Assembly: GCA_965656495.1 (NCBI GenBank)
Contig: CBFHKU010000003.1
Location: forward strand, 32,001 to 96,000
Length of the DNA: 64,000 nucleotides
Source: Coraliomargaritaceae bacterium
GTDB lineage: Bacteria > Verrucomicrobiota > Verrucomicrobiia > Opitutales > Coraliomargaritaceae
Direction: 5' to 3'
Every line of letters begins with the position of its first letter. The stretch's first letter is position 1. Position numbers and translations under genes: made by a program. Positions 13,269 to 56,688 of this stretch are shown piece after piece. Below the pieces are notes generated by a model. The model did no database searches. It was not told the origin of the DNA and saw only the letters and a list, made by a program, of their open reading frames with translations.

Positions 13269-13358
13269 GGATTAGGGGTAAGATTAAGAGTAAGAGTAAG
13301 ATTAAGATTAAGAGTAAGATTAAGATTAAGATTAGGAGTAGGAGTAGGAGTAGGAGTA
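13269..13358. repeat. hexanucleotide tandem repeat, 15 units of approximately RGAKTA, followed by a G run
   Basis: ggatta ggggta agatta agagta ... ggagta x4, read directly. Confidence 0.9.
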
Positions 13359-19691: not shown

Positions 19692-20621
19692 ATGCGTATT
19701 CTTATCACCGGTGGTGCCGGATTTCTTGGCAGTCATTTATGCGAACGCCTCCTCCATGAAGGCCACGAGGTTGTCTGCATGGACAATTTCTTTACGGGGC
19801 GAAAGGTGAACGTCGCCCATTTGCTGGACAATCCCTACTTCGAGCTGATGCGGCACGATGTCGTGGATCCCTTTAAGCTGGAAGTCGACCAGATTTACAA
19901 TCTAGCCTGTCCCGCCTCTCCGGTTCATTACCAATTCAATCCAATCAAGACGACCAAGACCTCCGTCATGGGCGCGATCAACTGCCTCGGTCTCGCCAAG
20001 CGGGTGAATGCCCGCGTTTTCCAAGCCTCGACCTCCGAGGTCTACGGCGATCCCTCGGTCCACCCTCAGCCCGAAGCCTATTGGGGCAACGTCAACCCGA
20101 TCGGGATCCGCTCCTGTTACGACGAGGGCAAACGCTGCGCCGAGACCCTTTTCTTTGACTACTATCGCCAGAACGGCGTCGATATCCGGGTGGTGCGCAT
20201 CTTCAATACCTACGGGCCGCGCATGCTGGCGGATGACGGTCGCGTGGTTTCCAATTTTATTGTACAGGCGCTCCAAGGAAAAGACCTTACGGTTTACGGC
20301 GAAGGCCAGCAGACCCGCTCCTTCTGTTACGTCGATGACCTCATCGAGGGTTTTGTTCGCCTCATGAATCAGGATCAGGTCGTGGGCCCCATGAACATTG
20401 GCAACCCCATTGAATTCACCATCCTCGAACTCGCTGAAACAGTCCTTCAAATAACCGGCAGTAGCTCAAAAATCATCTATGAGCCCATGCCGCAGGACGA
20501 CCCCAAGCAACGCCAGCCCGATATTACTCAGGCAAAGGAAATTCTCGGCTGGGAGCCCACTGTTCCCCTTGAGGAGGGCCTTAAAAAGACCGTCGCGTAT
20601 TTCAAGGAGCAGATTGCCTAG
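19692..20621 (+). CDS. UDP-glucuronate decarboxylase (UDP-xylose synthase)
   Basis: [48 protein letters not shown]. Confidence 0.92.
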
Positions 20622-20631
20622 GCTGTAGCAC

Positions 20632-20665
20632 TTGACAGAGTATTACATTTATCAAAAAGTAATAC
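20632..20665 (+). promoter_or_regulatory. TA promoter/operator: TTGACA plus inverted repeat GTATTAC/GTAATAC
   Basis: Seen immediately before the antitoxin start; typical autoregulated TA layout. Confidence 0.6.
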
Positions 20666-20666
20666 C

Positions 20667-20894
20667 ATGAAAATGAACCAAAAAGGGCAGGTGACGATAC
20701 CGCAAGACCTGCGCAAGCGTTTTGGAATGACTCGTGATACCGAAATCGTTTTTGAGGCGGTTCCTGAAGGTTTGCTACTGCGCACTGAAAATAAGGGGCG
20801 GGCGGGTCGCCTCCGTCGGGGCATTGCGAAAGCGCGGGGATGCGCCGATGCCGAATTGACAACCGAAGCGGTGATGGAATTGACCCGAGGCTAA
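20667..20894 (+). CDS. AbrB/MazE-type antitoxin (VapB)
   Basis: MNQKGQVTIPQDLRKRFGM swapped-hairpin motif; adjacent to a PIN gene. Confidence 0.88.
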   Translation: MKMNQKGQVTIPQDLRKRFGMTRDTEIVFEAVPEGLLLRTENKGRAGRLRRGIAKARGCADAELTTEAVMELTRG

Positions 20895-21293
20895 ATGGTT
20901 CTGGTAGATTCCAATGTTCTGATTGATCTTTTTACGAATGACCCCAACTGGGCCGAATGGTCAGAAAACGCCTTACTTGAAGCCGCTCGGTATGATGCGC
21001 TTGCCATCAATCCGGTCATCTACGCAGAAATTTCTATTGCTTTTTCAGATGCCGCCAAACTGGATGCCGTTCTCGAACCTCTGGAAATCATGCGACTGCA
21101 GTTGCCCTACCGTGCTGCCTTTCTTGCAGGTAAAGCCTTTCTAAAATACCGTCGGCAAGGCGGCGACAGATCCTCGCCGCTCCCTGATTTCTTTATTGGA
21201 GCCCACGCTGTAAGCGAAAAAATGAAACTCATTACACGGGACACAAAACGCTTCCGGAGTTATTTCCCAGGCATTAATTGCGTAACACCTTAA
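20895..21293 (+). CDS. VapC PIN-domain toxin
   Basis: LVDSNVLID, YAE, LPDFFIGAHA, LITRD. Confidence 0.9.
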   Translation: MVLVDSNVLIDLFTNDPNWAEWSENALLEAARYDALAINPVIYAEISIAFSDAAKLDAVLEPLEIMRLQLPYRAAFLAGKAFLKYRRQGGDRSSPLPDFFIGAHAVSEKMKLITRDTKRFRSYFPGINCVTP

Positions 21294-21313
21294 ACACAAA
21301 GCATCGATTCAAT

Positions 21314-22303
21314 ATGAAAGTTCTCGTCGTAGGAGGAGCCGGCTACATTGGTAGCCATTGCGTGCGTCAATTGCAGGCTGCGGGTCACGAACCCGTGGTA
21401 CTCGACAACCTGGTCTTCGGGCATCGAGCCGCCGTGCATCCATCCATTCCCTTCTATGATAGCGATCTTGGCGATTCCGAAGCGGTTGGCGAAATTCTCC
21501 GCAAGGAACAAATCGAGTTGGTCATGCATTTCGCAGCCTTCGCCTACGTGGGCGAATCGGTCACCGAACCCCGCAAGTACTACGAGAACAACTTCGTCGC
21601 GACCCTCCGCCTTCTCGAGACCATGCTCGATAACGGCGTTTCCAAATTCGTCTTTTCCTCTACCTGCGCGACTTACGGCGAGCCTGAGACCCTGCCCATG
21701 GTGGAGACCCTCCCGCAGGCACCCATCAACCCCTACGGGCAAACCAAGCTCGACGTCGAGAACTGCCTCAAGGCATTCGCGCACGCCTACGGACTCAGCT
21801 TCGCGGCCTTCCGCTATTTCAATGCCGCCGGAGCGGCGGAGGACGGCTCGATCGGCGAAGACCACAACCCCGAGACCCATCTCATCCCCCTCGTGATCGA
21901 CGCCGCCACCGGACGTCGCGAAAACATCCAAATCTTCGGCACCGATTATCCGACCCCCGATGGCACCTGCCTGCGTGACTACGTGCATGTGGACGACCTT
22001 TCCCGTGCCCACATTGCGGTCTTTGATAAACTCAACGAACCCGGCGCCGCCTATTTCTACAACCTCGGCACCGGCACCCCCAACTCCGTCCGCGAAATTA
22101 TCACGGCGGTCGAAACAGTCACCGGCTTGAAAGTTCCCGTAGTGGAATCCGAACGCCGCGCCGGCGACCCCCCCGCGCTTTACGCCGATTCCACCAAGGC
22201 ACAGCAAGAACTCGGCTGGGAAATTCAATACTCCAAAATCGAAGATATTATCGCCACCGCCTGGAAATGGCATCAGGCGAATCCCGAGGGTTTTGGGGTG
22301 TAA
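21314..22303 (+). CDS. galE: UDP-glucose 4-epimerase
   Basis: GGAGYIGSH, FSSTCATYG, RYFNAAGA, PETHLIP, DGTCLRDYVHV. Confidence 0.93.
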   Translation: MKVLVVGGAGYIGSHCVRQLQAAGHEPVVLDNLVFGHRAAVHPSIPFYDSDLGDSEAVGEILRKEQIELVMHFAAFAYVGESVTEPRKYYENNFVATLRLLETMLDNGVSKFVFSSTCATYGEPETLPMVETLPQAPINPYGQTKLDVENCLKAFAHAYGLSFAAFRYFNAAGAAEDGSIGEDHNPETHLIPLVIDAATGRRENIQIFGTDYPTPDGTCLRDYVHVDDLSRAHIAVFDKLNEPGAAYFYNLGTGTPNSVREIITAVETVTGLKVPVVESERRAGDPPALYADSTKAQQELGWEIQYSKIEDIIATAWKWHQANPEGFGV

Positions 22304-22312
22304 GTAACCGCC

Positions 22313-22507
22313 GTGAAGAACGCTGATTCAAAAAATTGGGACAGTGTCACCTGGGCGGGCGCGGAAAAGAGCCGCCGGATACAGGATGCCCGTTTGAGCT
22401 TCCGCCAAAAACTCGAGTGGAACGCGCAGGCTCTGGAACTCACAAAACGCTTCGAGGCAGGCTGCTCTAAGGCACCGAGCACCCGCCCGCGTCCAATTAA
22501 AAATTAA
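22313..22507 (+). CDS. small hypothetical protein, possibly an orphan TA partner
   Basis: 64 aa ORF filling the galE-rmlB gap; W..A...R..Q...LS..QKLEW pattern. Confidence 0.4.
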   Translation: MKNADSKNWDSVTWAGAEKSRRIQDARLSFRQKLEWNAQALELTKRFEAGCSKAPSTRPRPIKN

Positions 22508-22510
22508 GCC

Positions 22511-23716
22511 ATGAAAATTCTCGTAACCGGAGGAGCCGGATTTATCGGTTCCAATCTCGTACGACTGCTCATCAAAGAGAAGGGCGCTACCGTCATAAAT
22601 CTCGACAAGCTCACTTACGCGGGCAACCCCGAATCCCTTGCCGATCTCGCGGACGACCCCAACTACCACTTCGAATACGGAGACCTCGCCGCCCCGATTG
22701 ATACGCCTGAGACACCACCTTCACACCGTGATCAAAAATCGCTCGTCGAGATTTTTGATCACTACCAACCCGACGCGGTCATGCACCTCGCTGCCGAGAG
22801 CCATGTGGACCGTTCCATCGATGGCCCCGGCGAGTTCATTCAAACCAACATCGTCGGCACCTACAATCTGCTTCAAGCGAGTCTGCAATATTGGCGTGGC
22901 CTGCCGGAGCCAGAAAGTGAAAAAGTGAGAACGTGTGAAGGTGGAAATGTTCAATCAGAGTCCGGTGACCTTCCCACTGTCAAACCTTCCCACCTTCCCA
23001 CCCAGAAATCCTTCCGATTTCTGCACGTTTCGACTGATGAAGTCTACGGCTCCCTTGCGCCCGATGCTCTTGGGTTTTCTGAAACGACTCCTTACGATCC
23101 GCACTCCCCGTACTCTGCCTCCAAAGCCGCTTCCGACCATCTCGCCCGTGCCTGGGCCGACACCTACGGTCTGCCGGTGCTTGTCACGAACTGCTCCAAC
23201 AACTACGGACCCTACCAATTTCCCGAAAAACTCATCCCGGTGGTCATCCTCAAATGCCTGCGCGGGGAACCCATTCCCGTTTACGGAAAGGGCGAAAATA
23301 TCCGCGATTGGCTCTACGTGGGGGATCATGCCGAAGCCCTCTACGCCGTCCTAACCAAGGGTCGGGTAGGAGAGACCTACAACATCGGCGGCAACAACGA
23401 ACAGACGAACCTCAATTTGGTTAAATTAATTTGTAAGATTTTGGATCAACAGCATCCACCTTCCCACCTTCCCACTTTCACACCTTCAAACCCTGTCAGC
23501 TATGAAAGCCTAATCGGCTTTGTAGCTGACAGACCCGGCCACGACCTGCGCTACGCCATCGACGCCCGCAAGATCCGCGACGAACTCGGCTGGGAACCCA
23601 AAGAAGATTTCGAATCCGGTTTTCGCAAAACCGTACACTGGTATTTGGAAAACCAAGAGTGGTGGCAGCATATCCTTTCCGGCGACTACCAACTGGAGCG
23701 CCTGGGTAAAACTTGA
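22511..23716 (+). CDS. rfbB: dTDP-glucose 4,6-dehydratase with repeat-derived in-frame insertions
   Basis: [49 protein letters not shown]; 401 aa, longer than usual. Confidence 0.93.
22913..23002. repeat. inverted pair of 8-mer tandem arrays inside rfbB
   Basis: gaaagtga aaaagtga gaacgtgt gaaggtgg ... ccttccca ctgtcaaa ccttccca ccttccca. Confidence 0.8.
23456..23495. repeat. 8-mer tandem array inside rfbB
   Basis: ccaccttc ccaccttc ccactttc acaccttc aaaccctg. Confidence 0.8.
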
Positions 23717-23734
23717 AACATTACAAATAACATC

Positions 23735-25089
23735 ATGGAAAAATAGCAATAATTGGACTGGGATACGTCGGGTTACCTCTGGGTCTTCACTTTGCGGATT
23801 CGGGTGTTTCGGTATTGGGGCTGGATGTCGATGCGGCTAAAGTAGATGCCATCAATTCCGGCAAAAGCTACATCAAGCATATTGATGCGGCAGAGATTGC
23901 GGCACAACAAGCCAGTGGAAAACTGGAGGCTTCGACGGATTTTTCGCGGGTGAGCGAAGTCGATGCGGTGCTCATCTGCGTTCCCACTCCGTTGAACAAA
24001 TACCGCGAACCGGACATTTCCTACGTGCTGAAATCAGGCGAGGCCATTGCGCCTTACCTTGCGCAGCAAGGTGTGCAAAGTTCGAGTTCAGAGTTCGAGT
24101 CAGAAACTAGCCACTCGAACACTGCCAAAGGCAGTCCACTCGAACAGTCGCGTCCAAAACTCATCGTTTTGGAGTCGACGACGTACCCCGGCACGACCGA
24201 CACGGATTTACGCAAAGTGCTCGAAGCGGGTTCGGGCCTGAAGGCGGGAGAGGATTTCTACTTGGCCTTTTCTCCGGAACGCGAGGATCCGGGTCGCAAG
24301 GACCACTCTGTGAAAACCATCCCGAAGGTCATGGGCGGTTACACCGAAGCCTGTCTAAAGCGTTGTATAGAACTCTACTCCAAGGCGCTTGATAAAGTGC
24401 ATCCGGTCAGTTCTTGCCGTTTGGCGGAAGCAACAAAGTTAACTGAAAATATCTTCCGCTCTGTTAACATTGCATTGGTCAATGAACTGAAGGTGGTCTT
24501 TCAAAAGATGGATATCGACGTGTGGGATGTCGTCGACGCTGCGGCAACCAAGCCCTTTGGCTACATGCCCTTTTATCCCGGCCCCGGCCTCGGCGGACAC
24601 TGCATTCCGATTGATCCCTTTTACATGACCTGGAAGGCCCGCGAATACGAGCAACACACCCGTTTCATTGAACTGGCAGGCGAGATCAATACCGCCATGC
24701 CGGACTATGTGATTTCCCGCGTTGCCGACGCGCTCAATGACGACGGCAAGGCGATCAAGGGCTCCAAAATTCTCCTCCTCGGCATGGCTTACAAACCGAA
24801 CGTCGATGACGACCGCGAGTCCCCCAGTTACGTCCTTATGAAGAAACTTGAGGACAAGGGCGCCATTGTTAGCTACAACGACCCGCACGTCCCCGAGATC
24901 AAGCTCACCCGCGAACATCCGGAATTTGCGGGTAGGAAGTCCGTTGCGATCACTGACGACTTCGATTGTATCCTAGTCGCCACCCATCATGCCGAATATG
25001 GTGAATATGACTTTTCAAACTTCACTGCCCCAATCGTGGATACGCGAAATTGTGTAGGCAAACGTCCTGCTAAATATTATAAAGCGTGA
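23735..25089 (+). CDS. nucleotide-sugar dehydrogenase (WbpA/TviB/WecC family) with a frameshift right after the start codon
   Basis: ATG GAA AAA TAG is out of frame with KIAIIGLGYVGLPL; ICVPTP, ESTTYPGTT, FSPEREDPG, GPGLGGHCIPIDP follow. Confidence 0.88.
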
Positions 25090-25231
25090 CGCTATCAGTC
25101 ATCCTTCATCGCCCAAAGGGCCAACCAGCCAAGTATCATGTAGCCTAGGCCGATGACATGTCTCGTCTCCTCCTCCCCATCTCTAACCCGCAAGGCGGGC
25201 GGTTGTCCGAATGATTTTTTCAGGCGTTGAC

Positions 25232-25265
25232 TTGACAATTCACCCTTAAAGTAAGACGTTCTTAC
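25232..25265 (+). promoter_or_regulatory. TA promoter/operator: TTGACA plus inverted repeat GTAAGA/TCTTAC
   Basis: Directly upstream of the second AbrB antitoxin ATG. Confidence 0.6.
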
Positions 25266-25268
25266 GAT

Positions 25269-25505
25269 ATGCATACAGTTGTTTCCAGCAAAGGTCAGAT
25301 CGTGATTCCAGCCAAGATGCGCAAGGCCCTGAATTTGCATTCAGGGCAGCGGATCAATCTCGACCGTCGCGGTCGATCAATCATTTTGTCCACGGAGGAG
25401 CCTAAATTCGATAGATGGCTGGAGGAACGTCGCGGGAAGGGCGTGTTAAAGGAACCGTTAAAGGTTGACCGCACGGCAAGTATGCCTGAGGCAAAAAAAC
25501 TTTAG
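25269..25505 (+). CDS. AbrB/MazE-type antitoxin
   Basis: VSSKGQIVIPAKMRKALNL motif. Confidence 0.88.
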   Translation: MHTVVSSKGQIVIPAKMRKALNLHSGQRINLDRRGRSIILSTEEPKFDRWLEERRGKGVLKEPLKVDRTASMPEAKKL

Positions 25506-25508
25506 ACA

Positions 25509-25898
25509 GTGGGAACCTATCTCTTAGACTCTGATGTCGCGATCGCTTTGATTAATGGGCATGAGGAATGGATCGATCTTTTAATCGGTCAGGCGAACGC
25601 AATTTCCAGCGTGACTGCATATGAATTGGCAGTAGGCATAGAAAAATGCCGCTCCAAAAAGACAATCAGAGAGACCCGTGATTTCCTGTCTGCGATTGAA
25701 GTGATCGATTTCGATGTCGAAGCGGCATTTGAGAGTGCGCGTGTTCGCGCCGAACTCGAAAGTGTCGGGCAGGGCATCGGACCTTACGATACCTTAATTG
25801 CTGGGCACTGTCGCCTGCTTGGACGTTCCTTGGTGACCAATAATCTGCGTGAATTTGAACGGGTGTCGAACCTGGAGGTGGTCTCCATTCGGAAATAA
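25509..25898 (+). CDS. VapC PIN-domain toxin
   Basis: YLLDSD, SSVTAYEL, IGPYDTLIAGH, LVTNNLREFERV. Confidence 0.92.
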   Translation: MGTYLLDSDVAIALINGHEEWIDLLIGQANAISSVTAYELAVGIEKCRSKKTIRETRDFLSAIEVIDFDVEAAFESARVRAELESVGQGIGPYDTLIAGHCRLLGRSLVTNNLREFERVSNLEVVSIRK

Positions 25899-26161
25899 AG
25901 GTTTTTTTTCGCAAACACAGTAAACCAGTGCTGGAGCTCCCATTCGCCCTACATCTAGTGCAGCGGTTGTAAAAAATCATCCTTCAATTCTATCCCAATA
26001 TGTCAGAAGACTTGATAAAGTTCTTATACTTGAATGTTTTACTCGAGCTGGCAATGGTGCACAATCCACTCTGGAGTCTATGCCACGGCTTCTCTTAAGA
26101 CTTCTCAATTGATTGCTTTACACTATTATCCAGTTGCTGCCTAGTCGAGTTGCGTCGGGTG

Positions 26162-26491
26162 GGTTCAGATATCCTCCTCCTCGGCATGGCATACAAACCG
26201 AACGTCGATGACGACCGCGAGTCCCCCAGTTACGTGCTCATGAAAAAACTTGAGCAACGGGGTGCAATCGTGGATTACAACGATCCTTATGTGCCTGAGA
26301 TCAAAACAAGTCGAGAGCACGCAGATCTTGCGGGTCGCCGCTCTGTTGAGATAAATGACGACTATGACTGTATATTGCTGGCCACCCACCATGACGAATA
26401 TAGGGAGTTCGACTTTTCGGACTTTGCCAGCCCTGTGGTGGATACGCGAAATTGTATTACTAAACGCCCGATGAAATTTTTTCGAGCATAG
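26162..26491 (+). pseudogene. duplicated 3' end (alternative C-terminus) of the upstream nucleotide-sugar dehydrogenase
   Basis: ILLLGMAYKPNVDDDRESPSYVLMKKLE is identical to the upstream gene, then the copies diverge but stay colinear to the stop. Confidence 0.9.
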
Positions 26492-26522
26492 AGCGTAAAT
26501 TTAAGATCAACCTCTCAATATC

Positions 26523-27575
26523 ATGGCTAAATATCTCGTAACCGGCGTTGCCGGATTTATCGCATCACGCACGGCCCAGTTTCTTTTGGAACAAGGGCAC
26601 GAAGTTGTCGGCGTCGACAATCTGAATGATTATTATGACGTCAGGTTGAAATACTACCGTCTTTTCGAACTCGCGAAGGCATCGGGAGGGGCAGCTGGCA
26701 TTGTTGCAGATTTGGATAAGTCGTTTCGTGAATCGACACAGCCGTCTGGCGTATGGGAGGCGGGCAACTTTCGCTTCTTGCAACTCGATATCGAAGATAA
26801 GGGGGCGGTTCTCGACTTGTTCAAAGCGCATCAGTTTGATGCAGTCTTAAATCTAGCTGCCCGTGCTGGTGTTCGCTACAGTATGGAAAATCCCGATGTC
26901 TATATGACGACAAATGCCATGGGCACTCTGCACCTCATGGACGGAATGAAAGCAACGGGGGTGAAGAAACTTGTATTGGCATCCACTTCTTCCCTCTACG
27001 CGGGCCAGCCGATGCCCTTCACAGAGACCTTGCCGGTGAATTCGCCCATATCGCCTTATGCCGCTTCAAAGAAAGCGGCTGAGATGATGGCTTACAGCTA
27101 CAGTTACCTCTACGATCTGGATGTGTCGGTGGTGCGCTATTTTACGGTTTTTGGTCCCTGTGGGCGCCCGGATATGTGTATCTTCCGCTTCACGAATTGG
27201 ATCGATGCCGGTGTGCCAATCGAACTGTTTGGCGATGGCAGTCAAAGTCGTGATTTCACCTATGTCGATGATATCGCTCGTGGCACAATTGCAGCACTCA
27301 AGCCCGTGGGGTATGAAGTCTTTAATCTCGGCGGTGGCAATAACCCGATCTCACTAAAACAGATCATAGAATGGATCGAAGAGGGGCTGGGCAAAAAAGC
27401 CAACTACGACCATAAACCCTTTCATAAAGCGGACATAAAGGAGACTTGGGCCGATATTTCAAAAGCGGAGCGGATGCTCGGCTGGAAGCCCCAGGTTGGT
27501 GTAAAGGAAGGGCTGGATCAAACAACAGAGTGGTATTTTGCAAATAGAGAGTGGCTGCAGGGTGTGTCTCTGTAG
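26523..27575 (+). CDS. NAD-dependent epimerase, UDP-glucuronate 4-epimerase-like (second paralog)
   Basis: TGVAGFI, DNLNDYYD, LAARAGVRYS, SPYAASKK, GRPDM. Confidence 0.85.
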   Translation: MAKYLVTGVAGFIASRTAQFLLEQGHEVVGVDNLNDYYDVRLKYYRLFELAKASGGAAGIVADLDKSFRESTQPSGVWEAGNFRFLQLDIEDKGAVLDLFKAHQFDAVLNLAARAGVRYSMENPDVYMTTNAMGTLHLMDGMKATGVKKLVLASTSSLYAGQPMPFTETLPVNSPISPYAASKKAAEMMAYSYSYLYDLDVSVVRYFTVFGPCGRPDMCIFRFTNWIDAGVPIELFGDGSQSRDFTYVDDIARGTIAALKPVGYEVFNLGGGNNPISLKQIIEWIEEGLGKKANYDHKPFHKADIKETWADISKAERMLGWKPQVGVKEGLDQTTEWYFANREWLQGVSL

Positions 27576-27608
27576 CTTTATTCTGAATAATTCCCAATAA
27601 TATTACCC

Positions 27609-27866
27609 ATGAAAGGAATCATACTTGCAGGCGGTGCTGGCACCCGACTACACCCGATCACACTGGCTGTTTCTAAACAGTTGATGCCGATCTATGACAA
27701 GCCGATGATCTATTATCCGCTGTCCGTGCTTATGCTGGCAGGGATTAACGAAATCCTGATTATCACGACACCGGAAGATCAGCCGGCTTTCCAGCGCTTG
27801 CTGGGCGATGGCTCCGAGCTGGAGCGGTTGGGGACGAGCGAAGCTCGTGATGGTGAACAATACTGA
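27609..27866 (+). pseudogene. 5' fragment of rmlA (71 codons) joined to an rmlB-like C-terminal tail
   Basis: 68/71 aa identical to the 30132 gene, then LERLGT (rfbB ends LERLGKT). Confidence 0.9.
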
Positions 27867-27880
27867 ATGGGTGATACTGG

Positions 27881-28237
27881 ATGGGTGACGGACTTAAAGA
27901 TTTTGAGGAGATGGAGGTGTGGCAAGATGCTCGGCAGTTGGCAGTTGGTGTCTACTCCGATTTCTCACAAGTAAAAGACTTCTCCTTCTGCGATCAGATT
28001 AAGCGGGCGGTCATATCCATATCTAATAATATTGCCGAGGGGTGCGGCCGGACTACCAAAACTGAATTTGCTCGATTTCTAGATATTGCGAAAGGTTCAA
28101 GTGCAGAGGTTCGGAGTATGTATAGGGTTGCCGAAGCACTTGAATTTATTTCTACATGCACAGCACAAAGGCGCTGTGAATCTTGCGTGAGTATTTCTAA
28201 ACAGTTAAGTGGCTTTGCAAAGCACCTTCGAAAGTAG
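27881..28237 (+). CDS. four-helix-bundle protein (23S rRNA IVP-like family)
   Basis: FEEMEVWQDA, DQIKRAVISISNNIAEG, FARFLDIAKGSSAEV. Confidence 0.9.
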   Translation: MGDGLKDFEEMEVWQDARQLAVGVYSDFSQVKDFSFCDQIKRAVISISNNIAEGCGRTTKTEFARFLDIAKGSSAEVRSMYRVAEALEFISTCTAQRRCESCVSISKQLSGFAKHLRK

Positions 28238-28290
28238 GTTTCCAATCGAGCATTGAGCATCAAATATTAACTATCAAAAATCTCTGATTT

Positions 28291-28332
28291 TTTCCATAAA
28301 AGGAATCATACTCGCCGATGGCGCCGGCTCCC
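28291..28332 (+). repeat. degenerate copy of the rmlA start (ATG changed to ATA)
   Basis: ataaaaggaatcatactcgccgatggcgccggctccc vs atgaaaggaatcatactagccggtggtgccggctccc. Confidence 0.85.
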
Positions 28333-28412
28333 TTCAGCATTCCAGACTTGGGCACCTAATGAGTGTTCGTAAAAGAAATTGATTCAGAGCCGTAATCTGC
28401 TAACTTTACCAA

Positions 28413-28628
28413 ATGACCGCTCTTGAAAAAGAAATACTCAGTTTACCTAAACTGCAGAAAATCAGCATTATGGAAAAAATTTGGGTCGATCTTCTAAAAG
28501 AAGAGGAGGCGATTGAACTGCCTGAATGGCATCTTGAGGAACTCGCAAAAACAGAAAAAAGCATTCAAAAGGGCAGGGAACATTTTCAGGATTGGGAAGT
28601 AGCCAAAAAAGCGATTCGTGAGGCATGA
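28413..28628 (+). CDS. addiction-module antitoxin component
   Basis: LPKLQKISIMEKIWVDL...PEWHLEEL...DWEVAKK pattern; overlaps the RelE start (ATGA). Confidence 0.8.
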   Translation: MTALEKEILSLPKLQKISIMEKIWVDLLKEEEAIELPEWHLEELAKTEKSIQKGREHFQDWEVAKKAIREA

Positions 28629-28915
28629 ATCTGAGGATTCTAACTGCAGCCTCCCGAGATTTAGTGAAAGGAAAGAAGCTCTATGAGCGTCAATAAGTAG
28701 GCTTGGGAGGATATTTCTTAGACACCCTCTATTCTGACATTGACTCTTTGATTTTGTATGCGGGCATCCATCGAAAAATACGCGGTTATCACTGCATGTT
28801 TTCGAGGCGCTTTCCTTATGCGGTTTATTACAAAACAGAATCGAATGAGATTCGAGTGTATCGAGTGATGGACTGCAGACAAGATCCTCGAAAAACATTG
28901 AAAGCACTGAAGTAG
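28625..28915 (+). pseudogene. RelE/ParE-family toxin with an in-frame premature stop
   Basis: MNLRILTAASRDLVKGKKLYERQ*VGLGGYFLD...RRFPYAVYY..DCRQDP; TAA at 28694-28696. Confidence 0.82.
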
Positions 28916-28917
28916 TG

Positions 28918-28959
28918 CGAACTAAAAATTCAAAGAATTTTTCCATGAAAGAAAGCATA
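28918..28959 (+). repeat. degenerate copy of the rmlA leader and start
   Basis: cgaactaaaaattcaaagaatttttccatgaaagaaagcata vs cgaactaaaatttcggagaaattttctatgaaaggaatcata (30105-30146). Confidence 0.75.
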
Positions 28960-28977
28960 AACCTCATCTGCGTGCAT

Positions 28978-29026
28978 AGCGATTATGATTTAGTGCTACT
29001 TTTGCCGGATGACTGCGATCAATGGC
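28978..29026 (+). pseudogene. 49-nt remnant of the MNT gene
   Basis: 47/49 nt identical to 29372-29420. Confidence 0.85.
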
Positions 29027-29058
29027 TTGAGAAAGTCGCTACGCGACAGTTCTAGTTT

Positions 29059-29121
29059 ATAGTTCGAGAGCTGGAACTCCAAACTGAACACTCAAACTAA
29101 AAATTAAGGAATTTTTCCATG
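29059..29121 (+). repeat. second copy of the GTTCGAG/CTCGAAC element plus rmlA leader ending in ATG
   Basis: atagttcgagagctggaactccaaactgaacactcaaactaaa vs 30002-30044; then aatttttccATG. Confidence 0.75.
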
Positions 29122-29263
29122 GCGGCCATACGCTTCCCCCCATCCAGCATCGCCGTAAGGCCCATCGCTTCTGACTCCTTTACGCCTTTATGAGTCTATT
29201 AACTTACCTTTAGACCGCAAAGTTACGTTGACCTACCTTTCAAGTCTGTTGAGATTTCATACT

Positions 29264-29572
29264 ATGAAAAACGTGTCGATTCGCTCTCTCGCTAAAACAG
29301 CCGGGTTGGCGTCGGGGGCTGATGCAGTTTATTTATTTGGTTCTCGAGCAACCGGACGCAACCGCTCGGACAGCGATTATGATTTAGCGCTACTTTTGCC
29401 GGATGAGTGCGATCAATGGCAAGCGACTCGCGATGCACAGCGTTCACTCTGGCCGCGCCCTGTGCCAATCGACCTGGTTCCAATTACCAAGAAAAGTTGG
29501 GAAGATGGAAGCAACGCCTTCATCAGAGAAGTACGCAAAACCGGTAAACTTCTTTTTTCAAGAGATGGATAA
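29264..29572 (+). CDS. minimal nucleotidyltransferase (MNT) antitoxin
   Basis: VYLFGSRATG...SDYDLAL...PIDLV motif. Confidence 0.88.
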   Translation: MKNVSIRSLAKTAGLASGADAVYLFGSRATGRNRSDSDYDLALLLPDECDQWQATRDAQRSLWPRPVPIDLVPITKKSWEDGSNAFIREVRKTGKLLFSRDG

Positions 29573-29948
29573 TCTCGAAACTGGCAAATGGTTTGCTCAA
29601 GCTGAAGATGACTTCGCTTATGGCTGCGACGGAGTCGCTTCGCATCCGCGTGGAGCCACATGGAATTTTCACCAAGCCGCAGAAAAAGCGATTAAGGCGA
29701 TCCTTATTTCTCAGGAGAAAGATTTTCCACGGACACATGATCTGCCGCGACTATTGACGATACTTCAGTTGGAACCATCGGCCAGCGACACGGTGGCTCA
29801 AGCGGCATTCATTCTTTCCAGTTTTCTGCCGCTCACTCGTTATCCGGGCGATTGGCCCGAAATCAATGAAGCTAGGGCCAAAGAGGCCAAAGAAGCTTCG
29901 AAGATTATTCTGAGTTGGGCACGCAAACACTTTCAGCAGAAATTGTAA
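29565..29948 (+). CDS. HEPN-domain protein
   Basis: WFAQAEDD, HQAAEKAIKA, PRTHDL, TRYPG; overlaps the MNT stop. Confidence 0.88.
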   Translation: MDNLETGKWFAQAEDDFAYGCDGVASHPRGATWNFHQAAEKAIKAILISQEKDFPRTHDLPRLLTILQLEPSASDTVAQAAFILSSFLPLTRYPGDWPEINEARAKEAKEASKIILSWARKHFQQKL

Positions 29949-29976
29949 GATTTACGAAGCGATCTCTTTTACTTAC

Positions 29977-30113
29977 TAGTTCGAGTTATTAGTTCGAGTT
30001 GATAGTTTAAGAGCTCGAACTCCAAACTGAACACTCGAACTAAAGCAATGCGACCACTCGAACACCAGCAACGCTGTAAAAGTGTTCTACTATAACTAAA
30101 AACTCGAACTAAA
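29977..30113. repeat. cluster of AGTTCGAG / CTCGAACT inverted micro-repeats upstream of rmlA
   Basis: tagttcgagtt x2, then ctcgaac at four positions. Confidence 0.8.
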
Positions 30114-30131
30114 ATTTCGGAGAAATTTTCT

Positions 30132-30992
30132 ATGAAAGGAATCATACTAGCCGGTGGTGCCGGCTCCCGTTTACATCCCATCACGCTGGCAGTCTCCAAG
30201 CAGCTCATGCCAGTTTACGATAAGCCGATGATCTACTATCCGCTATCGGTCTTGATGCTGGCAGGGATCAACGAGATCCTGATCATTACGACTCCCGAGG
30301 ATCAGCCGGCTTTTAAGCGCCTGCTGGGGGATGGCTCCGAGCTCGGCTGCCGTTTTCAATACGCGATCCAGGAGGTGCCTAACGGTTTGGCACAGGCCTT
30401 TGTGATCGGTAAAGACTTTATCGGGGATGATAAGGTCGCCTTGGTCCTCGGGGATAATATTTTTTATGGTTCTGGTTTTGGGGAGCTGGTTCGCCGCCAC
30501 ACCGATCCCGATGGCGCGGTTATCTTTGCCGCCAGCGTCCACGATCCAGAGCGCTACGGCGTGGTGGAGTTCGACGAGCAGGAGAACGCTATCTCCATCG
30601 AGGAAAAGCCTGCGCAGCCAAAATCCAATTACGCCGTTCCGGGGCTCTACTTTTACGATAACGATGTGGTCGAAATCGCTGAAACCATCGAGCCCTCCGC
30701 TCGGGGCGAATACGAGATTACCACCGTCAATCAGGTTTACCTGGAGCGGAAAAAGCTCAAAGTTGGCGTATTCAACCGAGGCATCGCATGGCTGGATACT
30801 GGCACTTTCGCTTCACTCAACGAGGCTTCGACCTTCGTCCGCGTCATCGAACAACGGCAGGACACCAAGATCGGCTGTATCGAGGAAGTTGCCTTTTATT
30901 CAAAGTTCATTGATTGTGAACAATTGTTAAAATTGGCTCAGAAATTAGAGAAGTCCGGCTACGGTGATTATCTCTTAAGAATAGCTAAGTGA
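30132..30992 (+). CDS. rfbA: glucose-1-phosphate thymidylyltransferase
   Basis: [47 protein letters not shown]. Confidence 0.95.
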
Positions 30993-31002
30993 TCGTCGCA
31001 TC

Positions 31003-31739: not shown

Positions 31740-33689
31740 ATGAGTGCGATACGATATAGGCCGGAAGTCGATGGCCTGCGTGCGGTTGCTGTGATTCCAG
31801 TTGTCCTGTTCCACTTGGGAGCGACATGGATTCCCGGTGGCTTTGTTGGGGTCGATGTCTTCTTCGTGATTTCCGGATTCTTGATTTCCTCGATCATCCT
31901 CAAAGAGCAAGCAGCAGGCACCTTTACGTTCTCAGGGTTCTGGATGCGTCGGGTTCGACGTATCATGCCTGCGATGTTAGCAATGTTGATTGTAACATCG
32001 ATTGCTGGATACCTTTTACTGTTTGGCCCCAATTGGAAGGGTTTGAGCGATCAAGTGTTCTCCGCACTCGGCCTGTACGCAAATATTGAGATGTGGCAGT
32101 TGTCTGGTAATTATTGGGGCCCTGGTGCGGAGAGCGCGCCATTGTTACATACTTGGTCGCTATCGGTTGAAGAGCAGTTCTATTTTTTTTATCCCTTACT
32201 TTTACTGATCTTATTAAAGTTCACGCCAAAACGGGTATTTACGCTGATCCTCATCGGGAGTGTATTTAGTTTAGCTATGTGCGTCTATGCCACCGAACGC
32301 CACGCCAATGCTGCTTTTTACTTCTTGCCGACGCGTGCATGGGAGCTAGCGGCAGGTTGTTTATTGGCGATCTTTGAGCGTTCTCGAGGCCCAGTGCCTA
32401 AAGGGAGCATTAGTCGCAGTCTTGCACTTGCTGGACTGTTGCTCATTTGCGCGGGATATTTAATCATAAAAGGCCCTGAAGGTTTTCCCGGCTTCTGGGC
32501 GTTGCTACCCGTGGTTGGCACTGTTTTAGTGATTCGATTTGCGTGTACCGAGCAGTGCCTTGCAGGAAAAATATTGGGATGGGCACCTGTTGTGTATATC
32601 GGGAAATGCTCTTATTCGATGTATTTGTGGCATTGGCCTGTGATCGTTCTAGTCTCTGCGCTTAAGCTAAAATACCCCGAACTGGTCAATCTATGGGCTA
32701 TTCTAGCAGCGATGACTGTGCTCACTTTGGTGTCTTATCATTTCATTGAGTATCCGACGCGTAAGATGAAACGAATACTGCCATTAGTTCTGGCCGGTTT
32801 GGCCACTAGCTTGGGGTTCGCTACTTTTTTACGTCATGCTGAGTATGTATATGATTTATCCATCTTTGCTCCTGTGGAAGCTTTTGGTGCGGTCTACGAT
32901 GTCGTGCCATTCCCGCCTGAATTAGACGAGCGTCTTGAAGGTGTTGTGTCGCCGGACCGAGACCCCGCACAATATGCAGCATACGCGAATGATGGGGTTG
33001 TCCGTCAATTCGGGGGCGAAACGCCATCAGTAGTTGTTCTAGGCAGTTCTCATGGATTAATGTGGGGGAGAACGATTGAAGATATTTGTCGAGAGCTTGG
33101 CTTGACGGTTTTTTTCTATACTGCACGAGCGACGCCTCCTTGGATCTCGCTTCCAGTAGTTGCAGAAGCATCGCGTTTTTTTACCGAAGATCAGAAGTAT
33201 GCATTCGATATGAAGCGCATAGAGAATATTAAGGAATGGGCTCCTGATGTTGTGATCATAGTGGACCGTTGGTCTGTTCGTGGTGACCCGTTTGAGCATA
33301 CCGAGCTGCTTCAATATATAGAATCATGTGGGTCACAAGTCCTTCTGATCGGCCAACCACCTGAGTTGTCGACAGGGGATATGAGTATTCCACTACTCAT
33401 GGCCTATCGGTATGCTTCTTCTAATAGTCCGCCGCATCAAGATTACTTAGAGGCGCATCGTCCAGTGGTTGTCGATGATGCAAATTCTCGTATACGCGAG
33501 CTAGCAGAATTCTTTGAGTTTTGTCATTTCGTCGCCGTACAGGATCTATTTGAAACTGAAGATGCTCACGTGGTAGTCCGCGAGGGCAATCAAATCTTGT
33601 ATATTGACGACGATCATTTGAGTCAGGCGGGTGTGCAAAAAGCTAAAGACCGTCTCAAGCAAGCAATAGTAGCTTTAGTCAAAGAATAA
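31740..33689 (+). CDS. OafA-like acyltransferase-3 with SGNH domain
   Basis: DGLRAVAV, GVDVFFVISGFLI, HTWSLSVEEQFY, GSSH, DDDHLS. Confidence 0.9.
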   Translation: MSAIRYRPEVDGLRAVAVIPVVLFHLGATWIPGGFVGVDVFFVISGFLISSIILKEQAAGTFTFSGFWMRRVRRIMPAMLAMLIVTSIAGYLLLFGPNWKGLSDQVFSALGLYANIEMWQLSGNYWGPGAESAPLLHTWSLSVEEQFYFFYPLLLLILLKFTPKRVFTLILIGSVFSLAMCVYATERHANAAFYFLPTRAWELAAGCLLAIFERSRGPVPKGSISRSLALAGLLLICAGYLIIKGPEGFPGFWALLPVVGTVLVIRFACTEQCLAGKILGWAPVVYIGKCSYSMYLWHWPVIVLVSALKLKYPELVNLWAILAAMTVLTLVSYHFIEYPTRKMKRILPLVLAGLATSLGFATFLRHAEYVYDLSIFAPVEAFGAVYDVVPFPPELDERLEGVVSPDRDPAQYAAYANDGVVRQFGGETPSVVVLGSSHGLMWGRTIEDICRELGLTVFFYTARATPPWISLPVVAEASRFFTEDQKYAFDMKRIENIKEWAPDVVIIVDRWSVRGDPFEHTELLQYIESCGSQVLLIGQPPELSTGDMSIPLLMAYRYASSNSPPHQDYLEAHRPVVVDDANSRIRELAEFFEFCHFVAVQDLFETEDAHVVVREGNQILYIDDDHLSQAGVQKAKDRLKQAIVALVKE

Positions 33690-51959: not shown

Positions 51960-53339
51960 TTAGGCGGAGACAGATTGGAGAAAGTCAGCGATAAGTTTTG
52001 TGCGATCAAAGTTTGTTTGAACTGCCGCATGGGCGCGGGCTTGCATGGCAGCCCGCTCTTCTTCGCATTGGTCGGCGGCTGCCTTGAGGGCAGCGACTGC
52101 GGCGTCGACATCGCCGTGCTCAATCGACCAGCCGACAGGCTCTACCTGTGATGATTGATGATTGATGGTTGATACTTGATCGGGTTCAATGATGTCGCTG
52201 AGGTAGCTGTCTTTCGGGCCAAGGGTAAGCACTGCTCGGCCAATGCTGAGGGCTCCATAGATTTTACAGGGGTGTACTATCCCGCTCATATTTTCGCCTA
52301 GAGAGACGATATGCAGGTCGGCGGCGGAAAGGGAGTAGCGTATCTGATCGAGCGGTTGGTAGGGGAGAGACACGACCGAAGGTCGTGATGTTGAAGGTGG
52401 GAAAGTTTGAATGTGTGAAGGTTGTTTACTTCTTCCCTTATCTGCCTGAGGGATAAATTCGTTGTCAGACTTTCTTACTTTCTTACTTTCATACTTTCGC
52501 ACCCAGTCGTCGATGCGTGCATCGACGACGGCCTTTCCTTTGCCGCCGCCGATGAAGGCGAAAACGAAGCGTGGGTCGTCCGCAAGTTTTTCGGCGGCAT
52601 CCAGTATCGTGTCGAGCGGATGTACGATACTGTGATTGCCGCTATACATTACAACGAACTTGTTCTCCCAGCCTTGTGCTTTGCGGAAAGGATTATCGGC
52701 ATGGGCAACGGGGTCTAAATGATCATCCATTGGCCAGGGAGGGATGACATGAATTGGAGCTCTTAAATCTTTTTCAGGATCACGAAGCTTTGCTTCAAGG
52801 CGAGCTTTCATGAAGCGATCGAGCGCGATAATGGTATCGGCGCGTTTAAGAATACGTCGGTTCAGCCAATCCATCGCAAGGACCAAGGGGTGACCCTTGC
52901 CGAATTTCCCCATCGCGATGGCTTGATCCGGATTGATGTCCATCACCCAGTAGTGCACCTTCAGGCGGGGACGAAAAAATCCAATAGTGACGGCGCATAT
53001 CGCAGCCATGGGTGGGGAGGTTGAAACGAGCAGGTCGGTCAGTTTTCGGTTAAACAGCCCATGAAAGATACATTGGCAGAGAAAAGAAAGTTGAGCCAAA
53101 ATACGAATTGCCAGGTTGGCTTTACCCAATGAAGCAAGCTTCAGTCGCCGGATATGGATCCCATCGCGCGCTTCTTTCGCCTTAAAGACTTCAGCAGGAT
53201 TATCATAACCTCGGATTGCAGTTAGAACCTCAACGGCATTTCCCTTTTTTACTAAAGTTTGTGCTGCTTCATCCAAATATTGGCCGACAGCGGCGGGGTC
53301 GGGCGGGAAAACCTGAGTGATAATGAGGAACCGTTTCAT
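51960..53339 (-). CDS. WcaI-like glycosyltransferase family 4 with repeat-derived insertions
   Basis: QVFPPD, STSPP, WVMDINPD, YSGN, HPCKIYG. Confidence 0.85.
   Translation of the reverse strand: MKRFLIITQVFPPDPAAVGQYLDEAAQTLVKKGNAVEVLTAIRGYDNPAEVFKAKEARDGIHIRRLKLASLGKANLAIRILAQLSFLCQCIFHGLFNRKLTDLLVSTSPPMAAICAVTIGFFRPRLKVHYWVMDINPDQAIAMGKFGKGHPLVLAMDWLNRRILKRADTIIALDRFMKARLEAKLRDPEKDLRAPIHVIPPWPMDDHLDPVAHADNPFRKAQGWENKFVVMYSGNHSIVHPLDTILDAAEKLADDPRFVFAFIGGGKGKAVVDARIDDWVRKYESKKVRKSDNEFIPQADKGRSKQPSHIQTFPPSTSRPSVVSLPYQPLDQIRYSLSAADLHIVSLGENMSGIVHPCKIYGALSIGRAVLTLGPKDSYLSDIIEPDQVSTINHQSSQVEPVGWSIEHGDVDAAVAALKAAADQCEEERAAMQARAHAAVQTNFDRTKLIADFLQSVSA
52393..52500. repeat. inverted pair of 8-mer arrays inside the WcaI-like gene
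   Basis: gaaggtgg gaaagttt gaatgtgt gaaggttg ... actttctt actttctt actttcat actttcgc. Confidence 0.8.
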
Positions 53340-56436: not shown

Positions 56437-56688
56437 AAACACAGAGGATTGGAGTTATAGAAAAACGCGGAGGATCAAAGAATTGGAGTTGTGGATATTA
56501 TAAACGCAGAGGATCAAAGAAATGGAGTTATTTATTATAAACGCGGAGGATCAAAGAATCGGAGTTATGGATGTAATAAACGCAGAGCATCAAAGAATCG
56601 GAGTTATGGATGTAATAAACGCAGAGCATCAAAGAATCGGAGTTGTTGATTTAATGAATATCTCTCCGTTCCTCTGCTCCTCTGCGTT
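56437..56688. repeat. ~39-bp tandem repeat (5 full units + 1 partial) with a terminal inverted copy
   Basis: Units AAACGCRGAGSATCAAAGAATYGGAGTT.. start at 56463, 56502, 56539, 56578, 56617; inverted copy at 56664-56688. Confidence 0.92.

Follow-up and report, generated by a model that had tools for sequence, protein, structure and literature searches.

In-frame arrays of an 8-nucleotide repeat in rmlB of a Coraliomargaritaceae bacterium resemble the arms of four-helix-bundle gene cassettes

The window analysed in this work (the whole stretch of 64,000 nucleotides, positions 32,001 to 96,000 of contig CBFHKU010000003.1) contains rfbB (rmlB), the gene for dTDP-glucose 4,6-dehydratase, with three additions, S1 to S3, that carry arrays of an 8-nucleotide unit, GAARGTKK (Table 1). 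The product scores 468.6 bits against TIGR01181 (curated cut-off 365), its reading frame is open over all 401 residues, and the GxxGxxG, T175-D176-E177 and Y201xxxK205 motifs are invariant among 60 aligned RmlB orthologs. According to the alignment with the solved RmlB structures 1BXK and 1G1A, S1 adds 13 residues, S2 about 30 and S3 6-10, all at positions where solved homologs also vary in length; the placement in loops is based on these two homologs together with the general RmlB topology, and a single-sequence AlphaFold model of the protein was unusable (pLDDT 31.6). It is confirmed that rfbB encodes an intact RmlB with three enlarged loops that carry the arrays. The sequence GAAGGTGG occurs nine times in the window, compared to 2.06 copies expected and to none of 100 shuffles that reach nine, and five of these copies are in rfbB. 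The initial annotation had located 8-nucleotide units at 22715-22730, 22913-23002 and 23456-23495 and had taken them for frame-keeping, repeat-derived additions in tolerant loops; coordinates and sequence are as it described, and the comparison with orthologs and structures that it proposed bears out the loop additions.

Table 1. Repeat-bearing features of the window and the cassette with the same unit elsewhere in the genome
Feature	Position	Strand	Details
rfbB/rmlB, dTDP-glucose 4,6-dehydratase, host gene	22511..23716	+	401 aa; TIGR01181 above cut-off, catalytic motifs invariant
S1, 39-nt addition with remnant C-rich arm	22691..22735 (units 22715-22730)	-	13 extra aa compared to 1BXK/1G1A; orthologs
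S2 left arm, G-rich, 4-5 degenerate GAARGTKK units	22913..22952	+	sequence, profile scan
S2 right arm, C-rich, ~4.5 units	22966..23002	-	sequence, tandem-repeat finder, profile scan
S3, single C-rich arm, 4-5 units	23456..23495	-	tandem-repeat finder, profile scan
In-frame convergent pair, GTTCGAG family, in the next gene (nucleotide-sugar dehydrogenase)	24079..24150	+	residues 2-87 and 113 onwards covered by family models
PF05635 gene of another clade, weak arms	27881..28237	+	follows rmlA 5' fragment (27609-27866); 40% identical to cognate
Shorter GTTCGAG-family empty pair	~29049-29100		sequence
Intergenic empty convergent pair, GTTCGAG family, just before rmlA	29973..30115	.	sequence
Single 7-mer arm, second loop of the GT4 gene	52149..52180	-	23 aa compared to 10 aa in 8/9 measurable orthologs
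Second in-frame convergent pair of the 8-mer family, in GT4 glycosyltransferase gene (51960-53339, -)	52393..52498	-	
Cognate cassette of the 8-mer	G000:C3 ~150180-150635, gene 150245-150595		upstream arm G-rich, downstream arm C-rich; unit and polarity as S2

In S1 the repeat accounts for only about 16-19 of the 39 extra bases, as one perfect and one degenerate unit, and neither the tandem-repeat finder nor the 8-mer profile scan detects it. In the nearest relative S1 is 24 nt (three units) longer; by itself it is weak, and it can be recognised as a shrunken arm only through the orthologs. The left and right arms of S2 constitute a convergent empty pair. In S3 the native loop is partly replaced, so that the array of 40 nt leaves the loop just eight residues above the modal length. 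The inserts are not an artefact of assembly, because a contig from an independent study (run X3) spans the gene (22403-24624) with five differing letters and no gap. As regards an intragenic inverton, with the enclosed segment in both orientations within a population, no strand-changing joint is listed among the contigs of four runs. In a related strain represented by two RNA runs, S1 is missing, with exactly 39 letters fewer, and a different S2 insert is retained; an allele without S1 is present in one DNA run too. One row of run X13 at S3, which resembles another array of the genome, was set aside.

Other genes of the window are similarly affected. The GTTCGAG family, found in the dehydrogenase gene downstream of rfbB, also fills S2 of RmlB in four relatives. 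In the GT4 glycosyltransferase, the loop with the convergent pair comprises 68 residues, compared to 28-38 in 9 of the 12 measurable orthologs; two of the other orthologs carry an 8-mer pair and one carries another family. Judging from its sequence, the PF05635 gene of the window is not the cognate of the 8-mer. No Rfam match was found within window positions 20000-31000. The likely start codon of the dehydrogenase is out of frame with the NAD-binding motif (23736-23815), and this region has one more base in three runs of related strains, while run X3 agrees with the window; in this strain the gene may yield little protein or an inactive one. Farther downstream (25269-30131), AbrB-VapC, addiction module and MNT-HEPN toxin-antitoxin pairs and the four-helix-bundle gene lie between duplicated gene ends, namely a second dehydrogenase 3' end (26150-26491), a 5' fragment of rmlA and a degenerate rmlA start near 28300, followed by the full rmlA, which starts at 30132. 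A further toxin-antitoxin pair, with a PIN gene, is located at 20667-21293, and five copies of a 39-bp unit at 56463-56655.

The genome scan proposed in the initial annotation revealed 65 GAARGTKK arrays in 2.06 Mb, compared to one in each of two Markov controls (profile scan). The arrays contain between 2 and 15 units, in shuffled variants, and four units, found exactly in 27 of the 61 arrays that score 16 or more, is the mode; the earlier supposition that the single 8-mer is the mobile unit is not supported, as it occurs in arms of about four units. Nor are the arrays a feature of this locus, as 58 of the 65 lie outside predicted gene bodies, next to mdh, pnp, ahcY, carA, rplQ, rlmN, trpA, mfd and others. 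The expected enrichment in polysaccharide loci was not seen: array-flanking proteins are mostly housekeeping (50 proteins in 20 regions of 36 array clusters), but the credible in-gene copies, although few, are all within glycan genes. Seven arrays are in genes, three of them in rfbB, one in the GT4 gene and three others that we judged to be mis-extended starts or chance. When arm-like segments were counted with a library built from cassette arms, which is stricter and misses the degenerate GT4 and dehydrogenase inserts, 5 of 131 fell in gene interiors, which make up 69% of the genome.

Between genes, the 8-mer arrays are stacked with arrays of a 6-mer (TCTTAA), a 7-mer (GAACATC) and a 10-mer (CACGAATGGA) and with REP-like palindromes. 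Arrays recur as copied blocks together with flanking modules, and their unit number differs between close genomes. The two stacks that were aligned with the nearest genome differ sharply from it, and deletions have fused pairs of arrays in register. The GAACATC family is abundant, yet has no cognate among the PF05635 genes of the genome, of which there are four. For TCTTAA, an array of 13.5 units is present in the window (13270-13358) and the cognate PF05635 gene at G000:C3:105065-105460. In viral contigs from IMG/VR (L321-L349), 8-mer arrays are stacked head to tail with 7-mer arrays; none of 79 array-bearing viral contigs has a PF05635-like gene within 600 bases of the array, and the same profile finds 80 of 80 controls.

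The association with four-helix-bundle genes that the initial annotation had suggested is supported: the same arrays bracket one clade of the PF05635 family, and other clades have arms of other units. In the genome of the window (G000) the cognate cassette lies between protein genes, and two other PF05635 genes are flanked by 6-mer or 7-mer arms. In a tree built from 112 PF05635 loci of the bacterial family (the profile, with one seed out of frame, located 112 of 113 genes), the arm unit, 6-10 nt long, tracks the protein clade, an agreement that could partly reflect linkage, as kin are not independent. The arms are inverted in 89 of 104 distinct cassettes, compared to 11 of 103 mismatched pairs, and directly oriented in 7 of 104; they are also inverted in 74 of the 80 best GTDB relatives, which span Verrucomicrobiota, Bacteroidota, Patescibacteria, Planctomycetota and others, with Opitutales as the nearest named records. 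The GAAGGTGG arm marks a single clade of seven loci that are 65-100% identical, with the best outsider at about 44%; it is still present in homologs that are 52-59% identical and gives way to related units in more distant ones. At four-fold sites the cognate ORFs have reached saturation (90 of 257 identical), yet the arms retain the motif and must therefore be constrained or renewed. The best PDB match of the cognate protein is 2GSC (XCC0516), a solved four-helix bundle with five chains.

Cassettes of the GAAGGTGG clade occupy three junctions, phasin-aarF, argG and dacA-trpA (dacA and trpA labelled by Pfam, the others by eye). At dacA-trpA, G000 has an empty 8-mer pair and G030 the full cassette; at phasin-aarF, the congener G002 has neither the cassette gene nor the arms. 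These two comparisons close the link between the 8-mer arrays and the cassette arms. For the insertion ends, G006 lacked several sites or was broken at them, and G001 and G002 were too diverged; no target-site duplication was found in these comparisons. Of 11 genomes with the cognate gene, 10 have arrays, as do 24 of the 90 that lack it; kin are not independent in this sample, and many assemblies are incomplete. Orphan arrays predominate, with 65 arrays to one cognate gene in G000; G102 (94% complete, 23 matches) and G090 (90%, 12 matches) are rich in arrays and lack the gene, while the gene is accompanied by just two matches in the closed genome G012 and by no strict match in G030. Array-rich genomes that lack it, as well as the viral contigs, count against a tight coupling of the arrays to the cognate gene.

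The RmlB loops of related bacteria are variable in the same manner. At least eight extra residues are found in 6 of 57 measurable orthologs for S1, 35 of 61 for S2 and 30 of 59 for S3. The inserts have 11-mers in common with cassette arms in 20 of 35 cases for S2 and 13 of 30 for S3, compared to about one after codon shuffling; 15 and 17 inserts, respectively, do not match the arm library. All eight paired loop inserts are convergent, left then right. Single arms are mostly C-rich (13 versus 1 in S2, 8 versus 3 in S3), which fits the stop codons in several G-rich arms. Sister RmlB lineages (L005/L234, L225/L235 and L004/L229; support 0.99-1.0 on a tree of core codons) carry different families; the family labels on this tree are hand-made patterns, some of them overlapping, of which the 11-mer test is the objective version. 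Thus, S2 and S3 are recurrent sinks for different arm families. None of the 40 regions fetched among the family matches contains a full cassette inside RmlB. In L222 (G066:C1:3939300-3940700) a second, internally deleted rmlB has the S1 region joined to just before S3.

Taking the anatomy of the cassettes, the clade code, the full and empty states, the turnover and the retention of the motif in DNA as observations, we consider it somewhat probable that the rfbB inserts are ends of small selfish cassettes that have no cargo, which inter-array recombination has shuffled and which persist where they are in frame and free of stops. The cassette consists of a G-rich arm of about four 8-mers, the PF05635 gene and a C-rich arm. 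It may have entered the loop once, either complete or as an empty pair, and the cargo gene, if present, would then have been lost. Recombination or conversion with intergenic stacks could then have used the leftover arm as a landing pad, and exchange through shared units would bring in other arm families and REP elements. Slippage may alter the unit number, in steps of three units, and selection on RmlB would retain stop-free products of a length divisible by three in tolerant loops, so that the inserts would be translated passengers, nearly neutral for RmlB. A nested cassette is the intermediate expected from this model, and one of 174 cassettes does lie inside another gene (L035, G083:C14), out of frame in a methyltransferase-like gene, with 7-mer arms and the host frame open.

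Our best guess is that the arms are putative double-stranded DNA binding sites of the cognate protein; it is a speculation that arms of four to five units would match a pentamer. Strand transfer would be provided by an enzyme from outside the cassette, with host recombination as the first guess. Genes for Y1_Tnp, RVT_1 and tyrosine recombinase proteins exist in G000. Two Y1_Tnp (RAYT-like) genes (G000:C9:68100-69900 and C15:8900-10300) each lie amid their own REP-like repeats and not amid the 8-mer. The REP-like repeats of C9 recur in array stacks, and the C9 gene follows argG (by eye), a junction that holds an 8-mer cassette in G026.

It is rather unlikely that the inserts are RNA-level elements resembling the intervening sequences of 23S rRNA, with arms that pair in the transcript to loop out the cargo, either for cleavage by RNase III or to tune mRNA stability, and with S2 as a miniature stem. 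In a fold prediction for the full cognate cassette the arms do pair around the ORF (duplex -46 kcal/mol), own left-right arm pairs score slightly above cross pairs (21.1 versus 19.0; 42 of 64), and the intervening sequence of Coxiella that encodes this protein family has at its termini a stem of 28 bp, which RNase III cleaves (PMC4990558). However, on the sense strand there is no excess of G.U over A.C (100 versus 133; 101 versus 122), antisense duplexes are if anything more stable (48 versus 36 of 89), and the GAAGGTGG clade shows hardly any difference between own and cross pairs (17.9 versus 17.2). The S2 pair, described in the initial annotation as able to form a hairpin, folds at -23.7 kcal/mol with z = 0.04, and 96 of 200 shuffles fold as well; the GT4 pair gives z = -0.24, and S1 and S3 are single-armed. 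With these folds not above shuffles and the wobble test negative, the hairpin was rejected as a functional unit. RNA-run contigs of the related strain retain an S2 insert (113 letters versus 131 in the window), as far as contigs, which cannot show ends, are informative. Still more improbable is that the loops are protein features selected as interaction or regulatory segments, a reading to which we give almost no credence. The S2 frame is identical in distant lineages and the peptides are similar, but the loops are absent or swapped for unrelated sequence in close relatives, including a near-identical strain without S1. The initial annotation had regarded conservation of the protein without nucleotide periodicity as the outcome that would speak against it; instead, in 21 in-gene arms, the four invariant bases of the motif are conserved at 66 of 71 four-fold sites and at 220 of 238 non-synonymous sites, whereas identity at core four-fold sites among the same lineages is 0.40. 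Selecting these arms by profile raises the overall match artificially but leaves the comparison of codon classes unaffected. As the motif is kept at silent sites just as at non-synonymous ones, it is not a protein-level feature.

Two further explanations concern the origin of the arrays themselves. We regard as improbable that they are simple sequence repeats that expand by slippage, possibly with formation of G-quadruplexes and with no cassette involved. The different unit numbers in close genomes, the GG and GGG runs in the 8-mer and the majority of arrays without a cargo gene agree with this, but it leaves unexplained the convergent pairs, the clade-specific units at PF05635 genes across phyla and the full and empty states of one junction, and the families without G runs (TCTTAA, GAACATC, GTTGTTT) behave alike. 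An even smaller chance is given to the writing of repeats, in which an Avd-like pentamer and a reverse transcriptase would add units de novo at breaks or ends. PF05635 resembles Avd, a protein of diversity-generating retroelements (PMC10053308), and both the range of array sizes and the shuffled variants are compatible with such an activity. However, the only RVT_1 match of the genome (G000:C13:33267-33737, in a 480-aa frame) is on another contig with no PF05635 gene next to it, and idiosyncratic units are common to the S2 arms of distant lineages. These shared units, together with the recurrence of arrays as copied blocks, indicate copying rather than fresh synthesis, and for the templated synthesis raised in the initial annotation no evidence was found. 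By eye, the C13 reverse transcriptase looks like a defence-type enzyme; its frame is near a tyrosine recombinase gene (C13:28664).

The reading of the rfbB inserts as cargo-less cassette ends can be compared with several known systems. Cyanobacterial STRR heptamers reportedly include an in-frame case in nifJ, and REP/BIME elements with their RAYT transposases form hypervariable intergenic mosaics. REP-like palindromes occur here in the same stacks and loops; unlike REP/BIME, the 8-mer lacks palindromic symmetry, and the two RAYT-like genes are flanked by other repeats. There is a close similarity to the heptamer repeats GGGAATC of Xanthomonas and GGGGA(C/T)T of Nostoc (Rehm et al. 2015, PMC4692102). 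The Xanthomonas repeats form arrays of a short unit with four units preferred, convergent pairs and a strong intergenic bias, with intragenic pairs in purL (#27/28) and mraW (#35/36), and repeat #15, an array of four units, lies directly before XCC0516, with no downstream arm listed (PMC4692102). The authors argue for G-quadruplexes, and the main text is silent on XCC0516, S23 and intervening sequences (PMC4692102). In contrast to Xanthomonas and Nostoc, here the unit is an 8-mer, in Opitutales, with many families per genome and per loop. The multicopy sequences of Geobacter metallireducens and G. bemidjiensis, as the available excerpts describe them, are four tandem hepta- or octanucleotides in opposite-strand pairs at variable distance, and one family is inserted in genes without frameshift, as here; they are interpreted as regulator binding sites or RNA elements, and these excerpts describe neither a cargo gene nor a clade code (PMC2700814, PMC2996986). 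The arrays reported here share with those of Xanthomonas and Geobacter a unit of 6-9 nt, a mode of four, convergence and depletion in coding regions with occasional intragenic copies.

In the ORF-bearing 23S rRNA intervening sequences of Coxiella and Leptospira, the same protein family is encoded in sense orientation between complementary ends (PMC4990558). An S23p/PF05635 ORF between complementary ends is also found in the cognate cassette, but not in the rfbB inserts; the cassettes here are located at junctions of mRNA genes instead of rRNA, the cognate one between protein genes, their ends are periodic arrays, and the rfbB copies, which have no ORF, are retained in the transcript. Rickettsia palindromic elements and bacterial MITEs are likewise small repeats, and conserved enzymes tolerate their in-frame fusion; the Rickettsia elements are stable hairpins of 105-146 bp from one family (PMC2229807), whereas the inserts described here are periodic arms, often single, weakly folding and swapping families at each site. 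Known features are thus the four-unit arrays, convergent pairs and intragenic pairs (Xanthomonas, Geobacter), the in-frame fusions (Rickettsia) and the protein family itself (23S intervening sequences, Avd), and the tie of the arrays to PF05635 would be new. No paper linking such arrays to four-helix-bundle genes was found in the literature outside subscription journals and bioRxiv supplements.

Taken by itself, the case of rfbB is modest, because in-frame repeat inserts are already known and these look neutral. Its wider interest is that of a natural experiment, in which one loop in about 60 orthologs has received some ten arm families, each matched to a PF05635 clade. It is tempting to consider, as a tentative possibility that we hold to be doubtful, that PF05635 pentamers read the code of their own arms of 6-10 nt, one subunit per unit, and together with a host enzyme spread transposase-free cassettes across phyla. 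Many heptamer and octamer families, including GGGAATC of Xanthomonas, would then be scattered ends, and loops such as S2 and S3 would be self-renewing pads that add protein sequence. This would offer a testable origin for repeats that have long been unexplained and a context for PF05635, a family without known function.
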